44,039 nt of DNA, taken from assembly GCA_030821775.1 (NCBI GenBank), contig GCA_030821775.1_4700.1; one strand, 5' to 3'. The stretch's first letter is position 1. Each line of letters opens with the position of its first letter. This document shows, piece by piece, positions 5,244 through 37,244 of this stretch. A program made the translations under genes and the position numbers. The notes under the pieces are model-generated. The model worked only from the letters and a program-made list of their open reading frames with translations, was not told the DNA's origin and searched no databases. The DNA is from a phage.

Positions 5244-6162
5244 GTCTTAGTTCTGAAACTTTAGGAAGGCGAAGAACCCCTTTACTAGACTCTTGTAATG
5301 CCTTAACAGCAAAGATTCTACCAATGACATTCATCTCACCACCATTTTTAATATCATGATACATCTGTGCTGCATCCTCATGGGACCATCCACGCCCCAG
5401 CATGGCCTTAACAGACTTACCACCTTTCCATTTAAAGATTAAATTAGCTACCTTACCTTTATACTTACCCTTTCCTTCCTCCCACCCAATGCAGGTGAGG
5501 TCGTAAGATACCATACGCACGATCTTCGTTTGACGATAGCCCTTGTGCCCACTTTCATACTCCACATCAAGTTTGAATACAGCACCCTCTCGGCCTGCAT
5601 CTATTTGCTCTTGAGCAAACGCTTCAACTTCTCGCTCATTATGGCAAGGGGTAATAGGAAGGATAGCGTTGTACCCGCTAAGATGAGAGCCGATGCGACG
5701 ATGTAAAGCATCGTAACGTTTGAGATAAGAAACATCAGTGAATCCATCATGGAATGCCTTAATGGTTAGCATATCGAAGAAGTCGATATACAGGTTGTCT
5801 TTAATCTGCTGGCCTATGAAATCAAGTGGCTCGGTGCGGTTAGGGTTCACAACCCCAGAGATTGCCTCAAGGTAGATATCAACGGCCATAGACTGAAGCT
5901 CACCAAGATAAACGCCAACCGGAAAGGTAGCAAAGGTTTGTTCGAGGCCTTCAGTGTTTGCCAGTTTCTTACCAGTGCGACCAAAAATGCCAACGACACC
6001 ATCAGCGCGAACAACAACAGCAGAAAAGATACCATCTCGTTTCACCTGTGCATAACATGGAAAAGTAAGTTTCTTCTCAGGTACTTCACCGCGATGCTTC
6101 ACCAGCATGAATGGGTGGTTGCGGTGATCTTCGGGAAGGCCTAGGAATTGGAAGATGTTCAT
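5215..6162 (-). CDS. ATP-dependent DNA ligase
   Basis: 315-aa ORF with the nucleotidyltransferase KxDG motif (VKRDG) and strong SD GAAGGAGG. Confidence 0.8.
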   Translation of the reverse strand: MNIFQFLGLPEDHRNHPFMLVKHRGEVPEKKLTFPCYAQVKRDGIFSAVVVRADGVVGIFGRTGKKLANTEGLEQTFATFPVGVYLGELQSMAVDIYLEAISGVVNPNRTEPLDFIGQQIKDNLYIDFFDMLTIKAFHDGFTDVSYLKRYDALHRRIGSHLSGYNAILPITPCHNEREVEAFAQEQIDAGREGAVFKLDVEYESGHKGYRQTKIVRMVSYDLTCIGWEEGKGKYKGKVANLIFKWKGGKSVKAMLGRGWSHEDAAQMYHDIKNGGEMNVIGRIFAVKALQESSKGVLRLPKVSELRHDKEVPDVY

Positions 6163-6350
6163 TTCACCTCCTTCATCACACCTTTGACTATTGCCTCTTT
6201 AAAGTGCGCTAAGTTAGAACCATAGGCACTTAAATACCACGTTGCACCTCCATCGTTAGAGGTCAATACAAAACCGCGAGGACTTACTTTATATAAGTTA
6301 CCGAAGTACCCTCTATACAGTTTACCTTCCATATCAAATATCCTCATCAA
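6159..6350 (-). CDS. Hypothetical protein
   Basis: 63-aa ORF whose end is translationally coupled to the ligase start. Confidence 0.35.
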   Translation of the reverse strand: MMRIFDMEGKLYRGYFGNLYKVSPRGFVLTSNDGGATWYLSAYGSNLAHFKEAIVKGVMKEVK

Positions 6351-6804
6351 TACATTCGTGACGATGCTTCTGGAATAACTCTTTGTAGTAGTCTGCTTTC
6401 TTCAGATCTTCTTCAGTGTTGAATTTCTTACCTGCACGCAGACGATACTTCAAAGCGTTACCCATGCAATACCCAGCGAATTGCTTCTCTGTCATGCTAC
6501 GGGCAATGATAGTGATTGCTTCTACACCTTCGAAGAACTCGTAGTGTTTAGGCTTAGTAACCATATTGTTGTCCAACATGTTGGACTCTTCACCTTGCAA
6601 TGGGTTAACAACTTTGAAATAAGGTGCATACCATTCTCGTTTCTCAACACCATCTAACATGATAGAGTTATAATTAAGTTCCGCATGAGTCACTTTGAAC
6701 ACTCCATCTGGTTTCTTGTTTAAACTTGCACAAAGGCTATTCCAGTTGGCGTCTCGGTAAGCTGCACGGCGTACTACGTATTCTCCAATATTGATCTTTG
6801 ACAT
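6334..6804 (-). CDS. Conserved phage hypothetical protein
   Basis: Track ORF 6334..6819; the start is more likely the ATG at 6804, which has a GGAGG SD. No recognisable catalytic motif. Confidence 0.5.
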   Translation of the reverse strand: MSKINIGEYVVRRAAYRDANWNSLCASLNKKPDGVFKVTHAELNYNSIMLDGVEKREWYAPYFKVVNPLQGEESNMLDNNMVTKPKHYEFFEGVEAITIIARSMTEKQFAGYCMGNALKYRLRAGKKFNTEEDLKKADYYKELFQKHRHECIDEDI

Positions 6805-10456: not shown

Positions 10457-10472
10457 GTCCAACGCGTTGGAC
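10457..10472. repeat. Conserved palindrome, copy P1 (GTCCAACGCGTTGGAC)
   Basis: Perfect inverted repeat, member of the 8-copy TGTCCAAC-NN-GTTGGACA family; lies between the stop of gene 10473..10691 and the promoter at 10424. Confidence 0.8.
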
Positions 10473-11509: not shown

Positions 11510-11702
11510 TAATTTATTCCTCCTGTTGTTTGTTAGCTTTGTACTGAGCACAAGCATGTACTCACTAGAAAGCCCGATACTATATCGGGTTGTGCAAGAT
11601 GCACAAGAGGTTCAACACTTTACAATCATAGGACGTGCTTAGGATTTACGCTCACTGAGCACCTTGGATTTACTGTCTCTGACAAACCCACGTCCTATTG
11701 TT

Positions 11703-11720
11703 CTATAGTGTCACCTAATT
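11703..11720 (-). promoter_or_regulatory. SP6-type phage promoter (variant)
   Basis: Plus CTATAGTGTCACCTAATT; overlaps the stop of gene 11719..12096. Confidence 0.65.
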
Positions 11721-12096
11721 ATTTGGTCAGATTGTCTAACTCCATTTCCAGCATAACAATCTCTTTCTTCAGACTGTCAGATGCAGCTTGATGTACAATG
11801 GCAATGGATGCCTTGCGCTCTTCAAAGTCTGCCTTCAGGTTGTCACGCTCCTGCTGGTGACGTGCCATCATCTCTTCTACCTCTTTGACTTGACGCTCAT
11901 TCAGATCATCACGAGATGCATAGTAGCTATTGTGGCAGTCAATCATTTGAGAACTACGGTGTTCTTCAACTTCAACTTGTTCTGCCTGTACTGCTTCGAT
12001 GCGACCCTTGATTGCTTCAATAGCCTTGTACTTAAACTTATTAGCCAGACCACGAAAGTATTGAGCTACGAATACCAGAGTAGTTACCATTGACAT
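11719..12096 (-). CDS. Hypothetical coiled-coil protein
   Basis: 125-aa ORF with AGGAG SD; charged heptad-like sequence. Confidence 0.5.
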   Translation of the reverse strand: MSMVTTLVFVAQYFRGLANKFKYKAIEAIKGRIEAVQAEQVEVEEHRSSQMIDCHNSYYASRDDLNERQVKEVEEMMARHQQERDNLKADFEERKASIAIVHQAASDSLKKEIVMLEMELDNLTK

Positions 12097-12165
12097 ATTT
12101 ATATCTCCTATATTTACTTAATTACCTATACTACCTATAAGACCTTTATTACCTTGGTCTTCCTT

Positions 12166-12183
12166 CTATAGTGTCACCTAAAT
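12166..12183 (-). promoter_or_regulatory. SP6-type phage promoter
   Basis: Plus CTATAGTGTCACCTAAAT, exact consensus, between DNA polymerase stop and the next gene. Confidence 0.8.
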
Positions 12184-12223
12184 AAAAGGTAGAGAATTTA
12201 AGTGACACAAAGAAAGTTAACAA

Positions 12224-14894: not shown

Positions 14895-14912
14895 TGTCCA
14901 ACACGTTGGACA
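14895..14912. repeat. Conserved palindrome, copy P2 (TGTCCAACACGTTGGACA)
   Basis: Perfect 18-bp palindrome with complementary AAGG/CCTT flanks, in the gap upstream of the DNA polymerase gene. Confidence 0.8.
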
Positions 14913-15346: not shown

Positions 15347-16030
15347 TTAGATTTTCACGTAGGTTTCTTCAGTAACGATAGGGAGGTACAGTAATTCTTC
15401 ACCATTCAAGATGTGAAGACCTTTCAATCCTTGCTTAATGATAATATCTTCTATGGTTTTAGCAAAATTGGTATTAGCTACACGACGAGGTGTGCCATGC
15501 TCTGTGATTGCATGGTCAACATCATGATTCGCACAGGTACATTAGGGTGCATCATGGCTTCACCAATCTTCACCATAGCTTGTCCGGTGGATTTACCAAG
15601 AGCACGAGTGTTAAACTGTGTAACACCTAATGCAGTGCCACACAGCTTAATCATTTCACTTTGGGTCTTACCAGTGATTACATTGCGGCGCTCTTTCTTG
15701 AGTGTGGTCTTTGCTTTGCCACATGCCTCTGCTAAAGTTTGAATGCCACCACTATAGAGGTGTGCTGTAATATCACTTTCTGCATCTGGCGAGCGCACTT
15801 GTCGCAAATCTCATCATGTATGCACTTACATTGGTTGTTTACCTCTACAATCTTTTCAAGGTATTTATGTGCGTTCTTCTTGTTATAGAAAGCCTTAATA
15901 CCATTATCATATACTACATGATACAGGTTCTCACTTACATTATGCACTACACCATGACAACGATAGAGACGTGATGTTTATTGATGTTACGAACATAATC
16001 ACCTACATTCAATACTAATTTATACATAAT
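15347..16030 (-). pseudogene. Frameshift-disrupted gene, possibly a degenerate HTH-containing homing endonuclease
   Basis: Four consecutive minus-strand ORF segments in different frames (about 27 aa, 71 aa, 109 aa, 64 aa) tile this ~680-bp region; includes a Cys cluster (CKCIHDEICDKC) and an HTH-like stretch (TQSEMIKLCGTALGVTQFNTRAL). Confidence 0.4.
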
Positions 16031-16064
16031 CAATCTCCAGTTATTAATGTACTTAATAAGAGCC

Positions 16065-16082
16065 TGTCCAACATATTGGACA
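16065..16082. repeat. Conserved palindrome, copy P3 (TGTCCAACATATTGGACA)
   Basis: Perfect palindrome ~17 nt downstream of the primase/helicase stop. Confidence 0.8.
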
Positions 16083-16098
16083 AGCCCTGATAAGCACA

Positions 16099-18090
16099 CT
16101 AGAACTCCTGCTCTTCTTCGAAGTTACCTTGTTCTATAGTGTCCCCTAAATCAGCAGGCACCTCTTGCTGCTTAGGTACACCTGTATCAAAGCTCTTGGT
16201 TCGTGCTTGTGGTTCCCTCAATCTACCGGTAGCAAGGTCTCCTTTAAGCATAACCTTAGTTCCTGTGAAGATACCTTGGTCACGGTCTTTGACACATGAG
16301 ATGTACGTGGTAGTCCTTTCATCAAGCGTTTCAGCTCTTGTGTTACGCTCAATCCCCAATGCGTAAGATGCCCAGAATCCGATAGCTCCTGAGCCTCGGA
16401 AGTCAGAAAGGATAACCTCGCCACCTTCCTCGTGTTGGGTGCGGTTCCCCGCAGGACGTGTAAGGTGTGATACAAGGAATATAGTAACTGGGTGTCGGTC
16501 TTTGATAGTACCAATCCGCTTGACGCATTCATCAAGTGCACCAACCTTCCCACCATATGCTCTTTCATCTAATTTAATCCCAGTTAAGTTATCAATAAAG
16601 ATATTCTGAATCCCCATAGCTTCAAACTCTAAGCAGGTCTGCTCAATCTTCTCCATTGAGTAGTCACCTTCGAGGTCAGCTACAAAGAACTTACCCGTAT
16701 CAGCCACGTAGTCGATAGCTTCAGCCGCTTCCTCATCGGTATAGTCCAGCACCTCGCGGTAGCCATCCTCTTGCGGGTCGTTGGTTGGCGGCAACTCAAT
16801 GCGCTTATCAATCCACTTCCCGATGAATGCACGGGCAACCTTCTTGGTTGGGTCTTCTGTAGAGATAATGCCTACAGACTCGCCGTGCTCTTCGATGAGG
16901 TGCTTAACCACTTCACGAAGGAACTCAGTCTTACCTACACCGGAGCCAGCACCGACGATGATTAGCTGGTGCTTACGGATACCAAGCGTTACCTTGTTCA
17001 GCTTAGGCCAAGGCCACGACAGCCCTTCTTCTGGACGTGCCTGCTTGAGTTCGTCACGCATAGACGCAACGGACTTAATCTGGCTACCGAAGACTTCCTC
17101 AGAAGACTTGGCATTAAACCAAGCATCGACAAACTCTTTGGCCTTACCCGCCATCAAAGACTTGTTAGCATCCTTGCAACCACTTGGATACTCAAGGATG
17201 TAGGATTTGCCGGGAAACAGGCGAGCCGCTTGTTGGTTCTGCTTCTGCCCTACCTCGTCGCCATCGAATCCCCAGATAATCTTCTTGAATTGGGCGATGT
17301 GTTCACGGTTCTGCACAATCTCTTCAAGGCAAGATTCACCTTTGTTAACAGACCACACATGGTAAGGTTGCCCTTCCCACTTAGTACCCTTGGCAGAATC
17401 AAGGAGCATTTGCTGGGCTGCTAATGCATCCAGTTCACCACCCACGATAAGCAAGATATCTTTTCTTCTTCCCTTGTCCAACGTGTTGGACAGGGTATTC
17501 ATACCGAAAAGATCTTGTGTACCAAAGAGTTTACCTAGGTGTCCGAACTTAAAATCCTTCGGCAACGTCCGGCATTTTGCTCCAACAAGCACCCCCTTTT
17601 CATATCGTGGATAATAGTGACGGTTGACTCTTCCCTCTTCATCGTGTCCAACGCGCACATCGTACATTGCTGCGATGTCACCTCGAATGTGACGGGATAC
17701 AAGGTTCTTACGCTTAAGCGTGAGGAACCATTCAACATCAAGTTTCCACTCTGTTTCTTGGTCTGCCCTTTCTTGCTCATTCATAACCTCCCAACGGTCT
17801 TTCATACGCATACCACCAAGGGCGATGGCGCGTAGTTTAGGGTCGCTTATCTTCCCTTCTTTCTCCATCTCTTTGAATTGAGAAGGTGTGTATTTGATGT
17901 TGCCGGTAATAGGCAACTCGGTTATTTCGATGCCACCTTCCGGCTTATGGTAATAAGGTCTGCCATTATCATGGAAGTGACCACGGTTACAGTAGCCAGC
18001 ACCATCCTCGAATATCATAAGGTGGTTGCCTGATTTATCGTGTCCATTCTTCTGGCATTGAGGGCACGGAATGTTATTAATAATAGCCAT
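16099..18090 (-). CDS. DNA primase/helicase (T7 gp4-like)
   Basis: 663-aa ORF with an N-terminal Cys4 zinc ribbon (CPQC...C..GH) and a Walker A P-loop (GAGSGVGKTE) in the C-terminal helicase half. Confidence 0.9.
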   Translation of the reverse strand: MAIINNIPCPQCQKNGHDKSGNHLMIFEDGAGYCNRGHFHDNGRPYYHKPEGGIEITELPITGNIKYTPSQFKEMEKEGKISDPKLRAIALGGMRMKDRWEVMNEQERADQETEWKLDVEWFLTLKRKNLVSRHIRGDIAAMYDVRVGHDEEGRVNRHYYPRYEKGVLVGAKCRTLPKDFKFGHLGKLFGTQDLFGMNTLSNTLDKGRRKDILLIVGGELDALAAQQMLLDSAKGTKWEGQPYHVWSVNKGESCLEEIVQNREHIAQFKKIIWGFDGDEVGQKQNQQAARLFPGKSYILEYPSGCKDANKSLMAGKAKEFVDAWFNAKSSEEVFGSQIKSVASMRDELKQARPEEGLSWPWPKLNKVTLGIRKHQLIIVGAGSGVGKTEFLREVVKHLIEEHGESVGIISTEDPTKKVARAFIGKWIDKRIELPPTNDPQEDGYREVLDYTDEEAAEAIDYVADTGKFFVADLEGDYSMEKIEQTCLEFEAMGIQNIFIDNLTGIKLDERAYGGKVGALDECVKRIGTIKDRHPVTIFLVSHLTRPAGNRTQHEEGGEVILSDFRGSGAIGFWASYALGIERNTRAETLDERTTTYISCVKDRDQGIFTGTKVMLKGDLATGRLREPQARTKSFDTGVPKQQEVPADLGDTIEQGNFEEEQEF
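16134..16151 (-). promoter_or_regulatory. SP6-type phage promoter inside the 3' end of the primase/helicase gene
   Basis: Plus CTATAGTGTCCCCTAAAT located within the last ~17 codons of the gene. Confidence 0.7.
17475..17492. repeat. Conserved palindrome, copy P4, inside the primase/helicase coding sequence
   Basis: Perfect palindrome TGTCCAACGTGTTGGACA; encodes ...TLSNTLDKG... about 200 codons into the gene. Confidence 0.8.
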
Positions 18091-18100
18091 GGTCTGCCCT

Positions 18101-18238
18101 TTAGTTCCAACTACGTTTCATATTACGATTAACACCGCCGCGTTGTTGTACCCACTTTTTGGCACGATTCTTAAGGGTGCTAATATCTACATCGCACTCA
18201 TGACGGCTTCTACGGGTAATCTTTTCTACGTTACGCAT
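18101..18238 (-). CDS. Small basic protein (45 aa), T7 gp1.1-like by position
   Basis: Hand-translated MRNVEKITRRSRHECDVDISTLKNRAKKWVQQRGGVNRNMKRSWN with GGAG SD, between the tandem promoters and primase; resembles my recollection of T7 gp1.1. Confidence 0.4.
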   Translation of the reverse strand: MRNVEKITRRSRHECDVDISTLKNRAKKWVQQRGGVNRNMKRSWN

Positions 18239-18269
18239 GGTTAAATCTCCAAAGTAAGTTAGTCTTGTT

Positions 18270-18287
18270 CAATAGTGTCACCTAAAT
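18270..18287 (-). promoter_or_regulatory. SP6-type phage promoter (variant, downstream member of tandem pair)
   Basis: Plus CAATAGTGTCACCTAAAT, one substitution from consensus, with palindrome P5 directly upstream. Confidence 0.65.
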
Positions 18288-18289
18288 AG

Positions 18290-18305
18290 CCCAACACGTT
18301 GGACA
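18290..18305. repeat. Conserved palindrome, copy P5 (imperfect)
   Basis: CCCAACACGTTGGACA, one-sided degenerate copy abutting the promoter at 18270. Confidence 0.6.
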
Positions 18306-18432
18306 ACCTAGGTCTTCCCTTTATGTATAAGGAAAGGAAGTAATAGGAAGTAACCCAGTGTTACCTATGTAACCTATATTACCTACTACTTCCTATTACT
18401 ACCTATGACTTTCCGTCTCCGACGGGTTGGTC

Positions 18433-18450
18433 CTATAGTGTCTCCTAAAT
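18433..18450 (-). promoter_or_regulatory. SP6-type phage promoter (upstream member of tandem pair)
   Basis: Plus CTATAGTGTCTCCTAAAT; ~30 nt downstream of the RNAP terminator, with palindrome P6 directly upstream. Confidence 0.7.
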
Positions 18451-18458
18451 GCGCATCT

Positions 18459-18475
18459 TGTCCAACACGTTGGAC
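18459..18475. repeat. Conserved palindrome, copy P6
   Basis: TGTCCAACACGTTGGAC between the RNAP terminator and the promoter at 18433. Confidence 0.8.
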
Positions 18476-18502
18476 TTGTTAATAAAATGTTACAGGTAAT
18501 AG

Positions 18503-18532
18503 GCAAAAGAAAAGGGAGGCCGGAGCCTCCCA
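18503..18532 (-). terminator. Rho-independent terminator after the RNA polymerase gene
   Basis: Perfect 7-bp GC-rich stem GGGAGGC/GCCTCCC with a 4-nt loop (plus 18514-18531), followed on the minus strand by UUUUCUUUU, ~10 nt after the RNAP stop. Confidence 0.6.
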
Positions 18533-18542
18533 TGATTATTTC

Positions 18543-21161
18543 TTAAGCAAAACAGTAGTCGCTATCCATGATTTCGTTCAGGTCAAAGCTGCCTTGCTCT
18601 GGCACTTCGATGCCAGTATCAACCATCCAGCGGTCTTCGTGCTCATCAAGCAGTTTCTGCAAGGCGTTCCCTTCTGAGTACATGCCAACCATTTCTGATT
18701 TCAGTGCATGACGCAGCTTAGCGGTATTGTCTGCGTGAGTACCAAAGGAGTCGTGAATCACTGCAATACTCGTCACCCCTTCATCAACCAGATGACAGAC
18801 GGTCAGAATCAGGTGGCTTGCGTCATGACCATGAACGAAGTTAGGCGCTGCTGCTCCCATCATAGCGGTTTCATCCACTACATCAGTTTCAACTTGCAGA
18901 CTCATTTTGATGTCACCCATCAGGCAGGTGCGCACACGGAGCATCTCGGTCGCCATAATTTTCTGCTTCAGGATGAAGCCAGTTGGCAGTGGGTATTCCA
19001 ACCCTTCATTGCGCTTAGCTGCAAAGCGAGCCAACTTGCGAATCATCTGCATCGCCACTACCGGAGCCTTAACAACCTCAGAGATGGAAGGCCAGATGAG
19101 CGCCGTCATGTAGTTGTATGCTTTAGCCGGAGTAAGTTCACCGTTATCATCAAACGGGTGCACACGGTTCGCTGCGCGCCCTTCTGCCACCGCCATTTGT
19201 GCCTCTTTCTCTTCCAAATCGACGATATAGTCAATCACAGAATCACGGCAGGTGATGCGAGTAGAGCCGTAAGGCAGCGTCATTACTGGTTTCTTGGTCA
19301 GGCCACGGGTAATGCCTACGCTATCCCATGCGCTAGCCATAGCTCGAAGGTCAGAGCCGGAGAGGGTTAGGCTTCCGCTCGTGAAGGTCGTCCCTTCTTC
19401 GGCATCCATATAGAGCACATTTTTAGAAATGACCACCTGTGCAACCGCGCCGTAAATATCCTGCGGAGCGTCGGACGGCTTCAGGTTTACAGCTTTAGCG
19501 CCCACCTCATCGCGTAACATAGCGGAGTAATGCTGAATGCCGGAGCAAGAGCCATCTTGGTGGACTGGCAGGTGAGTTTCGAAATCGGCCTGCGTCCCTT
19601 TATCCAGTGCATCCAGATAGCGGGAGTATTCGAAGCACCAAGCAAGAAATTGGTACGGCTCATCCGCTTTAGCCCACTGTGTGAAAGTCAGCGGGTCGGC
19701 TGCAATGTCACGGCACATATCTTGGAAATCACCGTCTAACACGTTGGACTGACGTACGTCAAAGGTCTTCTTATCCCAACCCCACAGGTTAGCGCCCAGC
19801 ACGAGGAACCATTTAAGAGCTCCAGCGCTGTCAATCTTCCGCCCCTCTGTGAAGCGTAACAGAGATTTACCCAGGTCGTTAGACTGTGGGGACAGGGTGG
19901 AAGATTGAGCGTAAACACGGCTGCGGCTGTCCATCACGTAGACGAAGTAGATGGATTCAAAGGCGCTATATTTGCGAGCCTGTCCAATCATGCGAACCAC
20001 GGCGGCAGACTTGGAGCCGCGCTTTGTTTCGGCGGTGTATAGTCGCGCACACTCCCCTTTCCAGTTAATGAACGCCTGCCATTGCTCTTCTGATAGCATT
20101 TCTTTCAATTCACGACCCCGAAGATGTTGGAACTCAACCGGAACAGGGTTAGCAGGCTTGTTTTCCTTGTCAATTAGTGGCTTAAAGGACGGCACACCAT
20201 AGCCCAAATCAAGGCGGATGACGTCTTCAGCTACCGCTAAAACCTCTTTGTTAACCTGCCATTTGGTGTTTTGTAAGGCGTTAATAGCCTTGTACACCTT
20301 AGGCATTTGCTTAACAGTAAGTTTGCGAACATGCTCACGGTCGCCCTTAACCAGACGCACACGACTAGCCACCTTCTCAGTATGGAAGCCACCATTAAAC
20401 GGGGTTTTCCAAGGACGAGGAGGAACAACGCAAGGAGCATAGGCTGGGGCCAGTTGTGCTACGTGCTCTTTAAAGGCTGCAATCCATTGGCCTACAGTTT
20501 CGGAGGTTTGCAGGTAATAAATAGTTTTACCGCCAAATGAGCGCATAGCGCGAACGAACACAGGCTCACCGTTGTAGAATACGCTAGCTTCTAGTATTTC
20601 CAGCAGGGTAGTACCAATCTGCAATTGTGTATCTTTAGGCCATGCCTCCCAGCGGTCAAAGTCAGCGTCTTTAGCGGCTACAGACTTCTCAGCCACTACA
20701 GCTACATTGTGAGCGTGACGGTATGACTTGGTGCGGCTAGCCTTAAGCGATTTCTTCACTTTCTCGAAGTATTTCGCGGCGTGGCCTTCCAGCTTGCTGA
20801 AGCGCACTTGGTCTTCGATGCGCTCGGCAATGCTCATAGAAATGGCCTGCAATGTTACATCAGTGTTCAGCATATCCATAACTACCTTCATGGTAATATA
20901 GGCTGCCACCTCGTTTTCTACACACTGTAAGAAGGCTAGGGCACGAGGAGCGCGGCCTTTCTTGCCTTCGTATTCTTCTTTGTAAGCCTGAATGCCTTCA
21001 GCCATAGGCGCGATTAATTCAGACAGCAGGCGGCGATTCCATGCCGTATCTGATTCATTACCCGATGCTATTTGGCGCTGTTGGTCTGCCTCAAAGCGAC
21101 GGATCCCGCCATTAAACATTTCTTCTTCAAGCTGAAGCTGGATAGCGTGTAAGTCCTGCAT
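18543..21161 (-). CDS. Single-subunit DNA-dependent RNA polymerase, SP6-type
   Basis: 872-aa ORF with AGGAG SD; N-terminus [32 protein letters not shown]... and overall sequence match my recollection of SP6 RNAP almost residue for residue; consistent with the SP6-type promoters across the genome. Confidence 0.95.
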
Positions 21162-23650: not shown

Positions 23651-23668
23651 GTCCAACATGTTAGACAA
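23651..23668. repeat. Conserved palindrome, copy P7 (imperfect)
   Basis: GTCCAACATGTTAGACAA, one mismatch in the right arm, just upstream of the -35 of the putative host promoter. Confidence 0.6.
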
Positions 23669-28298: not shown

Positions 28299-28382
28299 GC
28301 TATCTCCTATTACTTCCCAACCCTCCCCATGAAGATTGGCTAGTAATAGGCCGCTCAAAAGAACGGCACTATCTTATCTCTT

Positions 28383-29891: not shown

Positions 29892-30031
29892 TATCTCTCC
29901 TATTATGTAAATATAGTAAGGAATGAAGGAATAGGGTGTACAGGAGTACACCCATACTAAGGCATACCTAGATATAACCTAGGTTAACCTATATTATCCT
30001 TGTTATTTCTCTTATTCTCTGTGCCCTCCTC

Positions 30032-37226: not shown

Positions 37227-37244
37227 TGTCCAACATGTTAGACA
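37227..37244. repeat. Conserved palindrome, copy P8, between two internal virion protein genes
   Basis: TGTCCAACATGTTAGACA (one mismatch) with complementary AAGG/CCTT flanks, in the 66-bp gap between the two large internal virion genes. Confidence 0.7.

Follow-up and report, generated by a model that had tools for sequence, protein, structure and literature searches.

A conserved hairpin-forming repeat array between two tandem promoters downstream of the RNA polymerase gene in SP6-group phages

Introduction

What is the function of the repeat-rich DNA between two tandem phage promoters that follow the RNA polymerase (RNAP) gene of an SP6-group phage? The locus lies on the minus strand of a 44,039-nucleotide stretch of phage DNA (GenBank assembly GCA_030821775.1, contig GCA_030821775.1_4700.1), which was analyzed at its full length and is called the window below. 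A preliminary description had placed a candidate primary replication origin there, with the promoters flanking an AT-rich iterated region as in phage T7. We compared 21 distinct versions of the region, collected by two pattern scans of viral contigs and from phage-collection records. As judged by predicted folding, what these relatives conserve in the iterated segment is hairpin-forming complementarity. We give about an even chance to a reading in which the locus corresponds to the control region between T7 genes 1 and 1.1, and the segment, flanked by two middle promoters, serves in the processing or stability of RNA. The question of an origin has weight of its own: no mapping of an SP6-group origin was found in the literature, and the group includes therapy phages (K1-5 and K1E types) and the source of SP6 RNA polymerase.

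A leader with a strong predicted fold between two SP6-type promoters

The window is an SP6-group phage genome in which all long open reading frames (ORFs) lie on the minus strand, and the elements are read 5' to 3' on that strand. From upstream to downstream, the inter-promoter region comprises the following features.

18460–18475, minus strand: palindrome copy A (GTCCAACGTGTTGGAC), 9 nt upstream of promoter A, with orthologues at SP6 6093 and K1-5 6002
18431–18450, minus strand: promoter A (ATTTAGGAGACACTATAGGA), with ATTTAGGAGACACTATA followed by G and +1 at 18433; two mismatches to the SP6 consensus
18413–18425, minus strand: 5' stem-loop of the promoter-A transcript (CCGTCggaGACGG), +9 to +21, predicted with RNAalifold
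18359–18406, minus strand: five direct (A/G)TAGG(T/A) repeats at 9–10 nt spacing, part of which forms the 5' arm of the long hairpin
18339–18400, minus strand: long hairpin, a predicted 15-bp stem (18400–18386 with 18353–18339) plus a smaller capping hairpin
18314–18336, minus strand: second hairpin, CTTTCCTT-atacata-AAGGGAAG, from predicted folding
18289–18304, minus strand: palindrome copy B (GTCCAACGTGTTGGGC), 1 nt upstream of promoter B
18268–18287, minus strand: promoter B (ATTTAGGTGACACTATTGAA), with ATTTAGGTGACACTATT followed by G and +1 at 18270; an SP6-type match that is off consensus at -1

Both promoters were found where they had been reported, at 18433 and 18270 after the RNAP terminator, each with a palindrome copy in front of it (18475–18460 and 18304–18289). 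Across the window, 12 sites match the SP6-type promoter, these two among them; every one lies on the minus strand, and 0 were expected by chance. The two +1 positions are 163 bp apart, only 33 nt separate the +1 of promoter B from the next start codon, and an ORF scan found no credible ORF between the promoters, in agreement with the earlier view of this stretch as non-coding. Both promoters are kept in the 21 relatives, with specificity bases that are clade-specific (ACCGG in K1-5). Near its start site, promoter B is off consensus in all clades, where it reads CTATTG (SP6-like genomes), CAGTATAG (K1-5-like genomes) or CCCTATAG (L010); this suggests that it is a conserved weak or regulated promoter.

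The TACCTAT/AACCTAT iterations noted between the promoters are real. Read on the sense strand from 18406 to 18359, the five units are ATAGGTAGTA, ATAGGAAGTA, GTAGGTAATA, TAGGTTACA and TAGGTAACA, followed by an inverted copy, TTACTTCCTATTACT. Five RTAGGW motifs within 50 nt occur once in the window, at this array, and the left half of the element, which holds it, is 67% purine. Over the whole genome, the hexamer ACCTAT shows no excess (20 copies against 18.7 expected). The similar clusters reported at about 12120–12160 and 29940–30000 are present in a weaker form, as two or three copies downstream of the promoters at 12183 and 30049. A 13-bp inverted repeat had also been reported at about 18340 and 18387; it is exact (GTAATAGGAAGTA, 18340–18352; TACTTCCTATTAC, 18387–18399). 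At 94% complementarity it can be lengthened to 18 nt, the arms lying 34 nt apart, and it ranks second among the local inverted repeats of the window.

The leader transcribed from promoter A is predicted to fold strongly. The 145 nt from the +1 of promoter A to the end of palindrome B reach -49.1 kcal/mol (z = -3.1). When the 5' stem-loop and the palindrome are left off, the minimum free energy of the remaining core has z = -5.0 against full shuffles and -4.7 when the purine and pyrimidine halves are shuffled separately. Corrected for GC content, the region counts among the five strongest folding outliers on the sense strand of the 44-kb window. In 19 of the 21 genomes, the sense strand gives the more stable fold (mean difference from the antisense strand, 2.2 kcal/mol), which hints modestly at a role of the structure in the transcript. 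An Rfam search of the region returned no known RNA family; the weak matches resembling miRNA precursors (E = 0.02–0.6) are attributable to the length of the hairpin.

Conservation of the predicted fold in SP6- and K1-5-like genomes

The full intergenic alignment gave the same element order in 21/21 SP6- and K1-5-like genomes, the flanks of which have diverged down to about 77% DNA identity. SP6 (6017–6340) and K1-5 (5929–6251) are identical to the window in this order from the terminator to the small ORF; they differ from it in hairpin register, and K1-5 differs additionally in its palindrome arms and the ACCGG promoter bases. The long hairpin is kept in all 21 relatives, with z between -1.6 and -5 and significance in all clades but one. 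In every clade, the prediction consists of a main stem of 10–17 bp and a smaller capping helix, about 19–23 bp in total, and the arms are built from repeat registers that differ between clades. All relatives carry five to seven phased AGG units at 9–11 nt spacing (five in the window, seven in K1-5-like genomes).

The smaller elements vary within the same framework. The third pair of the 5' stem-loop is G-C in 17 genomes and A-U in 3 according to RNAalifold, and C-G, by eye, in Klebsiella phage HY. Equivalents of the second hairpin, with other sequences, occur in the SP6 and K1-5 clades, and the L042/L103/L104 clade has none. Escherichia phage ULINTec7 (L003 950–969) carries a 10-bp tandem duplication in the hairpin loop (CTAGGAATAC twice) compared with the other K1-5-like genomes, which indicates that the repeat array evolves by slippage.

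In Erwinia phage vB_EamP-S2, a relative at greater distance whose RNAP C-terminus is only 60% identical, the RNAP terminator is followed by the palindrome GTCTCAC-AC-GTGAGAC. A promoter-like sequence and then TAGGT repeats come next, as judged by eye, and the leader folds with z = -3.7.

Comparison with the T7 gene 1/1.1 region

In the T7 record, gene 1 ends at 5822, phi1.1A lies at 5848, phi1.1B at 5923, and gene 1.1 starts at 6007. SP6 gp9 and T7 gp1.1 are 52% identical (E = 2e-8), and the RefSeq entry of SP6 gp9 notes 'other names: gp1.1'. The 45-aa ORF of the window lies in the corresponding slot and has only the MRN.EK.T start and the KRSW end in common, as compared by eye and not by BLAST. 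Because the gene order is conserved and the SP6 small gene resembles gp1.1, the locus is supported as the positional counterpart of the T7 primary-origin region.

The two regions are alike in that a transcribed, hairpin-forming segment lies between two tandem phage promoters. The 57 nt between phi1.1A and phi1.1B form a hairpin in folding, and we take this stretch to be R1.1 (reportedly placed there by Dunn & Studier 1983). R1.1 is an RNase III site between T7 genes 1.0 and 1.1 and forms an irregular helix with an internal loop (PMC6121014). For RNase III from E. coli, an ideal substrate comprises 22 bp, or two turns (PMC3867540). The segment in the window is likewise transcribed and intergenic, downstream of the RNAP gene and promoter A and upstream of the gene 1.1 slot, and its predicted helix is near two turns. 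By this comparison, the iterated segment appears to occupy the position of R1.1 and not that of the T7 AT-rich zone.

Several differences stand beside this likeness. The +1 positions are 75 bp apart in T7 and 163 bp apart in the window. T7 has its terminator, TE, only after gene 1.3, whereas the terminator in the window follows the RNAP gene directly. In T7, a zone of about 84 nt with roughly 27% GC (our own count) follows phi1.1B, compared with the 33 nt that precede the start codon in the window. R1.1 is irregular, whereas the window hairpin is near-perfect and contains phased TAGG units. Finally, no palindrome like the 16-bp copies of the window was visible in the T7 sequence examined.

A candidate processing signal at the early/middle boundary

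Sequence and comparison place the terminator in the path of early RNAP-gene transcription, and promoters A and B lead into the ORF at the gp1.1 position, the primase/helicase gene and the DNA polymerase gene. The locus may be the early/middle boundary, at which host-RNAP transcription would terminate after the RNAP gene and phage RNAP would start at A and B. The 146-nt promoter-A leader, together with any read-through RNA, would then act as an RNA element rather than as a DNA origin element. Its predicted fold consists of the 5' stem-loop, a near-perfect hairpin in which a 3+5-bp helix caps the 15-bp stem, the second hairpin and the palindrome hairpin. At the R1.1 position, this set of hairpins would most likely be an RNase III-type processing and/or stabilizing signal, which could separate the RNAP mRNA from the replication-gene mRNA and set the 5' end of the latter. 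The TAGG repeats may be the building blocks of the purine-rich arm, with slippage driving their evolution. Replication start at this site, if any, would be a property of the promoter pair, through transcript priming, and not of an AT-rich iteron block.

A number of observations weigh against such an RNA element. The literature search found no cleavage or transcript-end data for the window phage or its relatives. An inverted repeat would be equally conserved under a DNA-level model, as a cruciform or as protein sites in both orientations. As far as the Erwinia phage, the (A/T)AGG(T/A) motif is kept together with the 9–10 nt phasing, which a model requiring just any hairpin leaves unexplained. 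Since the stem is near-perfect and our inverted-repeat scan misses the T7 RNase III sites at the positions attributed to them, the likeness to R1.1 is positional, and as proposed functional, rather than structural, and the scan is no valid detector of such sites. RNAalifold gave no consensus for the main stem, either from the 21 sequences or from the extracted hairpins, and recovered only the 5' stem-loop and the palindrome; the shift of register between clades, which leaves the arms not alignable, accounts for this result. Single substitutions in the main stem within clades are few and, as far as the alignment shows by eye, mostly uncompensated.

A further observation against it comes from Salmonella phage PST_H2, where the 3' arm and the second hairpin have given way to a frameshifted gene for an HNH homing endonuclease. 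Promoter A, the 5' stem-loop and the first repeats remain in this phage; the full hairpin is therefore not essential. This natural variant, with half of the element replaced, constrains all models. The conserved leader, with its strong predicted fold, is directly testable as an RNase III substrate.

Two other roles in RNA were considered for the AGG units. A CsrA sponge was dropped, since the units of the window clade are mostly GGU rather than GGA. A decoy for ribosome binding was left as speculation: ATAGGAG occurs in 3 of the 41 inferred ribosome-binding sites, most of which contain GGAG or AAGGAG.

Possible replication origin

The proposal of a primary replication origin would have the A and B transcripts prime the phage DNA polymerase, with the iterated segment as the zone of RNA-to-DNA transition or unwinding. 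We regard this proposal as possible but doubtful; for the promoter pair, origin activity is plausible by analogy with T7. T7 replication starts at phi1.1A and phi1.1B, where a phage promoter forms the essential origin element (PMC8373140), and its origin contains a 61-bp A/T-rich cluster with a single GGGTC primase site (PMC12839067, PMC2910064). Promoters A and B, both on the minus strand, point into the candidate initiation zone. The pair lies after the RNAP gene and before the gene 1.1 slot. Its position is 13.9% of the genome length, compared with 14.7% in T7 (5848/39937); a primary origin of the T7 type would be expected about 15% from the left end. The likeness to the T7 origin asserted in the preliminary description holds to this extent, for the order of RNAP gene, tandem promoters and gene 1.1 slot at about 14%. 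It is not supported for the iterated segment as the AT-rich zone, because the T7 zone, with GGGTC on the complementary strand, follows both promoters, and the window segment is only mildly AT-rich.

The base composition bears this out. The 125 bp between the promoters contain 40.8% GC (59% AT), about 1.2 standard deviations (sd) below the genome mean of 47.5% GC (52.5% AT; sd 5.5%). The 78-bp core has 34.6% GC (65% AT), and approximately 4.6% of windows of such size have 36% GC or less. The segment is thus no outlier, and the +1 to +100 region of promoter A (58% AT) falls within the range of the other 11 promoters (56–69%), the upper end of which is reached downstream of the promoter at 12183. 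An iteron-type origin in the style of lambda or plasmids would have several direct repeats of 17–22 bp, bound by a dedicated initiator, beside a strongly AT-rich unwinding element. The segment does not match this pattern, as the units are degenerate and 9–10 nt long and no strongly AT-rich flank adjoins them, although no search for an initiator gene was made.

The AT-richest segments of the window lie elsewhere, at 15978–16055 (24% GC over 78 bp) and 12081–12220 (28% GC over 125 bp). The promoters at 16151 and 12183, respectively, lie just upstream of them, and both segments overlap the start of a small gene. The T7 secondary origins (phiOR, phi6.5 and others) resemble the present locus in having a promoter followed by DNA of below-average GC content (PMC8373140), but the window promoters at 12183 (69% AT from +1 to +100) and 16151 (24% GC over 78 bp) fit that pattern better.

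Strand composition provides an argument in favor of initiation and structure an argument against it. In all clades, the half downstream of promoter A is 67–79% purine on the RNA-like strand, and a purine-rich RNA-like strand would favor a stable RNA:DNA hybrid. A strong RNA hairpin, however, would compete with R-loop formation. The trinucleotide GCA is reportedly the recognition site of the SP6 primase (Tseng et al. 2000). By eye, neither strand of the 146-bp inter-promoter segment of the window contains 5'-GCA-3', whereas the T7 zone has a primase site (PMC2910064). SP6 and K1-5 have GGGCAGAC in their inter-promoter segments.

In the window, SP6 and K1-5, the minimum of the detrended cumulative GC skew lies about 0.4–0.6 kb to the right of the promoter pair, with lower skew leftward, which would fit an origin. 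We rejected GC skew as origin evidence, since in the T7 control the minimum (9.5 kb) is 3.6 kb off the origin (5.9 kb). Moreover, the left/right difference in skew coincides with the switch from host RNAP to phage RNAP. The analysis as a whole narrows the candidate origin to the promoter pair, near 14% of the genome length; the argument for it is synteny with T7, not AT-richness or iterons.

Palindrome family and possible protein-binding sites

The palindromes in front of promoters A and B belong to a dispersed family. The 16-bp sequence GTCCAAC-NN-GTTGGAC has 10 sites in the window, compared with 0.34 expected.

6571–6586, 10457–10472, 14896–14911, 16066–16081, 17476–17491: palindrome copies, the first five of the 10 window sites
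18289–18304, 18460–18475, 19734–19749, 23651–23666, 37228–37243: palindrome copies, the last five of the 10 window sites

SP6 has nine copies and K1-5 seven, at positions mostly orthologous to those of the window. Three promoters have a copy 1–15 bp upstream, at orthologous positions in the window, SP6 and K1-5. Another copy, just after the primase/helicase stop codon, sits in a 13-bp extended stem followed by a U-rich tail, and one lies between the two large internal-virion-protein genes. A further copy, about 600 nt inside the primase/helicase ORF, is retained with codons that change along with the palindrome. In K1-5-like genomes, the arms read GTCTCAC/GTGAGAC, a compensatory change at two pairs, and RNAalifold detected covariation at two pairs across the 21 genomes (UA/CG and CG/AU). 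One genome may contain both variants. In read-through RNA, copy A is predicted to pair with copy B. On the sense strand, imperfect copies show G.U 10 times and A.C 4 times, a weak lean to which SP6 alone contributes 6 of the 10.

These sites could also be read at the DNA level, with the TAGG units (direct copies, then inverted ones) and palindromes forming an operator-like array for a phage or host factor that would control A and B, in the early-to-middle switch or the shut-off of middle genes, or would assemble a replication complex. The 9–10 bp phasing would place the five to seven units on roughly one face of the DNA, and conservation of the motif reaches Erwinia phage S2. The orthologous placement upstream of three promoters, the clade differences at symmetric arm positions and the maintenance of a copy inside the primase/helicase ORF despite altered codons all fit protein binding. 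We nevertheless consider this array quite unlikely. No candidate binding protein was identified, the units are degenerate and vary in number, and both a slippage duplication and a homing-endonuclease insertion are tolerated. The coexistence of both palindrome variants in one genome is easier to reconcile with hairpin covariation than with one protein specificity, several palindromes lie in extended stems with U-rich tails like RNA 3' hairpins, and the imperfect copies lean toward G.U on the sense strand. A broader form of the idea is unlikely as well, namely that the AGG array and the GTCNNAC-NN-GTNNGAC palindromes are putative sites, in DNA or RNA, for a phage or host factor gating the early-to-middle switch or origin firing; we know of no T7 counterpart of such a factor.

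Least probable is a largely neutral, slippage-prone repeat in a long untranslated leader, with the hairpin as a by-product of direct and inverted unit copies: repeat number and hairpin register do differ by clade, the ULINTec7 duplication is recent and PST_H2 has half of the element replaced by the homing-endonuclease gene, but the module, its order and its hairpin potential are kept in 21 genomes with diverged flanks, the TAGG repeats persist in Erwinia S2, and the folding z-scores are significant in every clade but one. An RNA element, an origin, a binding array and a neutral repeat are not mutually exclusive. T7 combines promoters, an RNase III site and an origin in the same 200 bp.

Genomic setting

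The features that surround the inter-promoter region are as follows.

18543–21161, minus strand: gene of the single-subunit RNAP (872 aa), an ORF whose relatives are annotated as DNA-directed RNA polymerase
18505–18531, minus strand: rho-independent terminator from the terminator scan, with hairpin GGGAGGCTCCGGCCTCCC and T-run TTTTCTTTTG
18477–18498, minus strand: 22-nt block TACCTGTAACATTTTATTAACA between the terminator and palindrome A, from the alignment of relatives
18101–18238, minus strand: 45-aa ORF (MRNVEKITRRS...KRSWN) in the gene 1.1 slot, assigned from the ORF list and its position
16099–18090, minus strand: primase/helicase gene, the downstream neighbor, an ORF annotated as primase/helicase in relatives

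The terminator position has a hairpin and T-run in 21/21 relatives, with stem sequences that differ. The adjacent 22-nt block is nearly invariant in 21/21 SP6- and K1-5-like genomes, in the form TACCTGTAACATTT(N)ATTAACA, and exceeds the promoter specificity bases in conservation. It is absent from Erwinia phage S2, and a scan for sigma-70 promoters found no match in it. Comparisons with the DnaA box and IHF sites by eye gave one to two or more mismatches and were dropped. A 44-aa ORF was rejected as a coding candidate, since its start lies inside the terminator hairpin. The 45-aa ORF is the variant common to ULINTec7 and not the SP6 type.

The flagged region matches SP6-like phages (Molineuxvirinae: Zindervirus, Vectrevirus), with DNA identity of at most about 87–89% to any phage-collection record. 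On this sequence evidence, the window is a new SP6-group genome in the reverse complement of the conventional map. It is circularly permuted, with the RNAP gene near the middle instead of at 3.4 kb as in SP6, and by gene-order alignment with SP6 the physical genome ends are expected near 24.2–24.6 kb of the window. The promoter pair and gene order are already present in the published SP6 and K1-5 genomes, to which the window adds a member, and the original papers on these genomes may already describe the whole module. In a full-text literature search, with the SP6 and K1-5 genome papers outside its coverage, neither origins nor RNase III sites of the SP6 group came up, nor did the palindrome sequence; likewise, no description of the phased TAGG array, the 22-nt block or the dispersed covarying palindromes turned up in the literature search.

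HNH homing-endonuclease genes have inserted repeatedly into the interval that separates the RNAP gene from the primase/helicase gene (PST_H2, L002 915–1365; BP12B, L004 1184–1630; Erwinia S2, L116 1892–2344). For genome engineering, the comparison marks which parts of this interval are conserved and which tolerate insertion.

Other promoter-proximal inverted repeats

Of the four inverted repeats that rank highest in the window, three are promoter-proximal. Besides the one described above, inverted repeats at 11615–11711 and 28306–28350 (minus strand) lie within about 100 nt downstream of promoters with +1 at 11703 and 28383. Their cores are related, AATAGGA/TCCTAT at 11.7 kb and TAATAGG/CCTATTA at 28.3 kb, and the 3' arm of the repeat at 28.3 kb includes the ribosome-binding site GTAATAGGAGatagcATG of the downstream gene.

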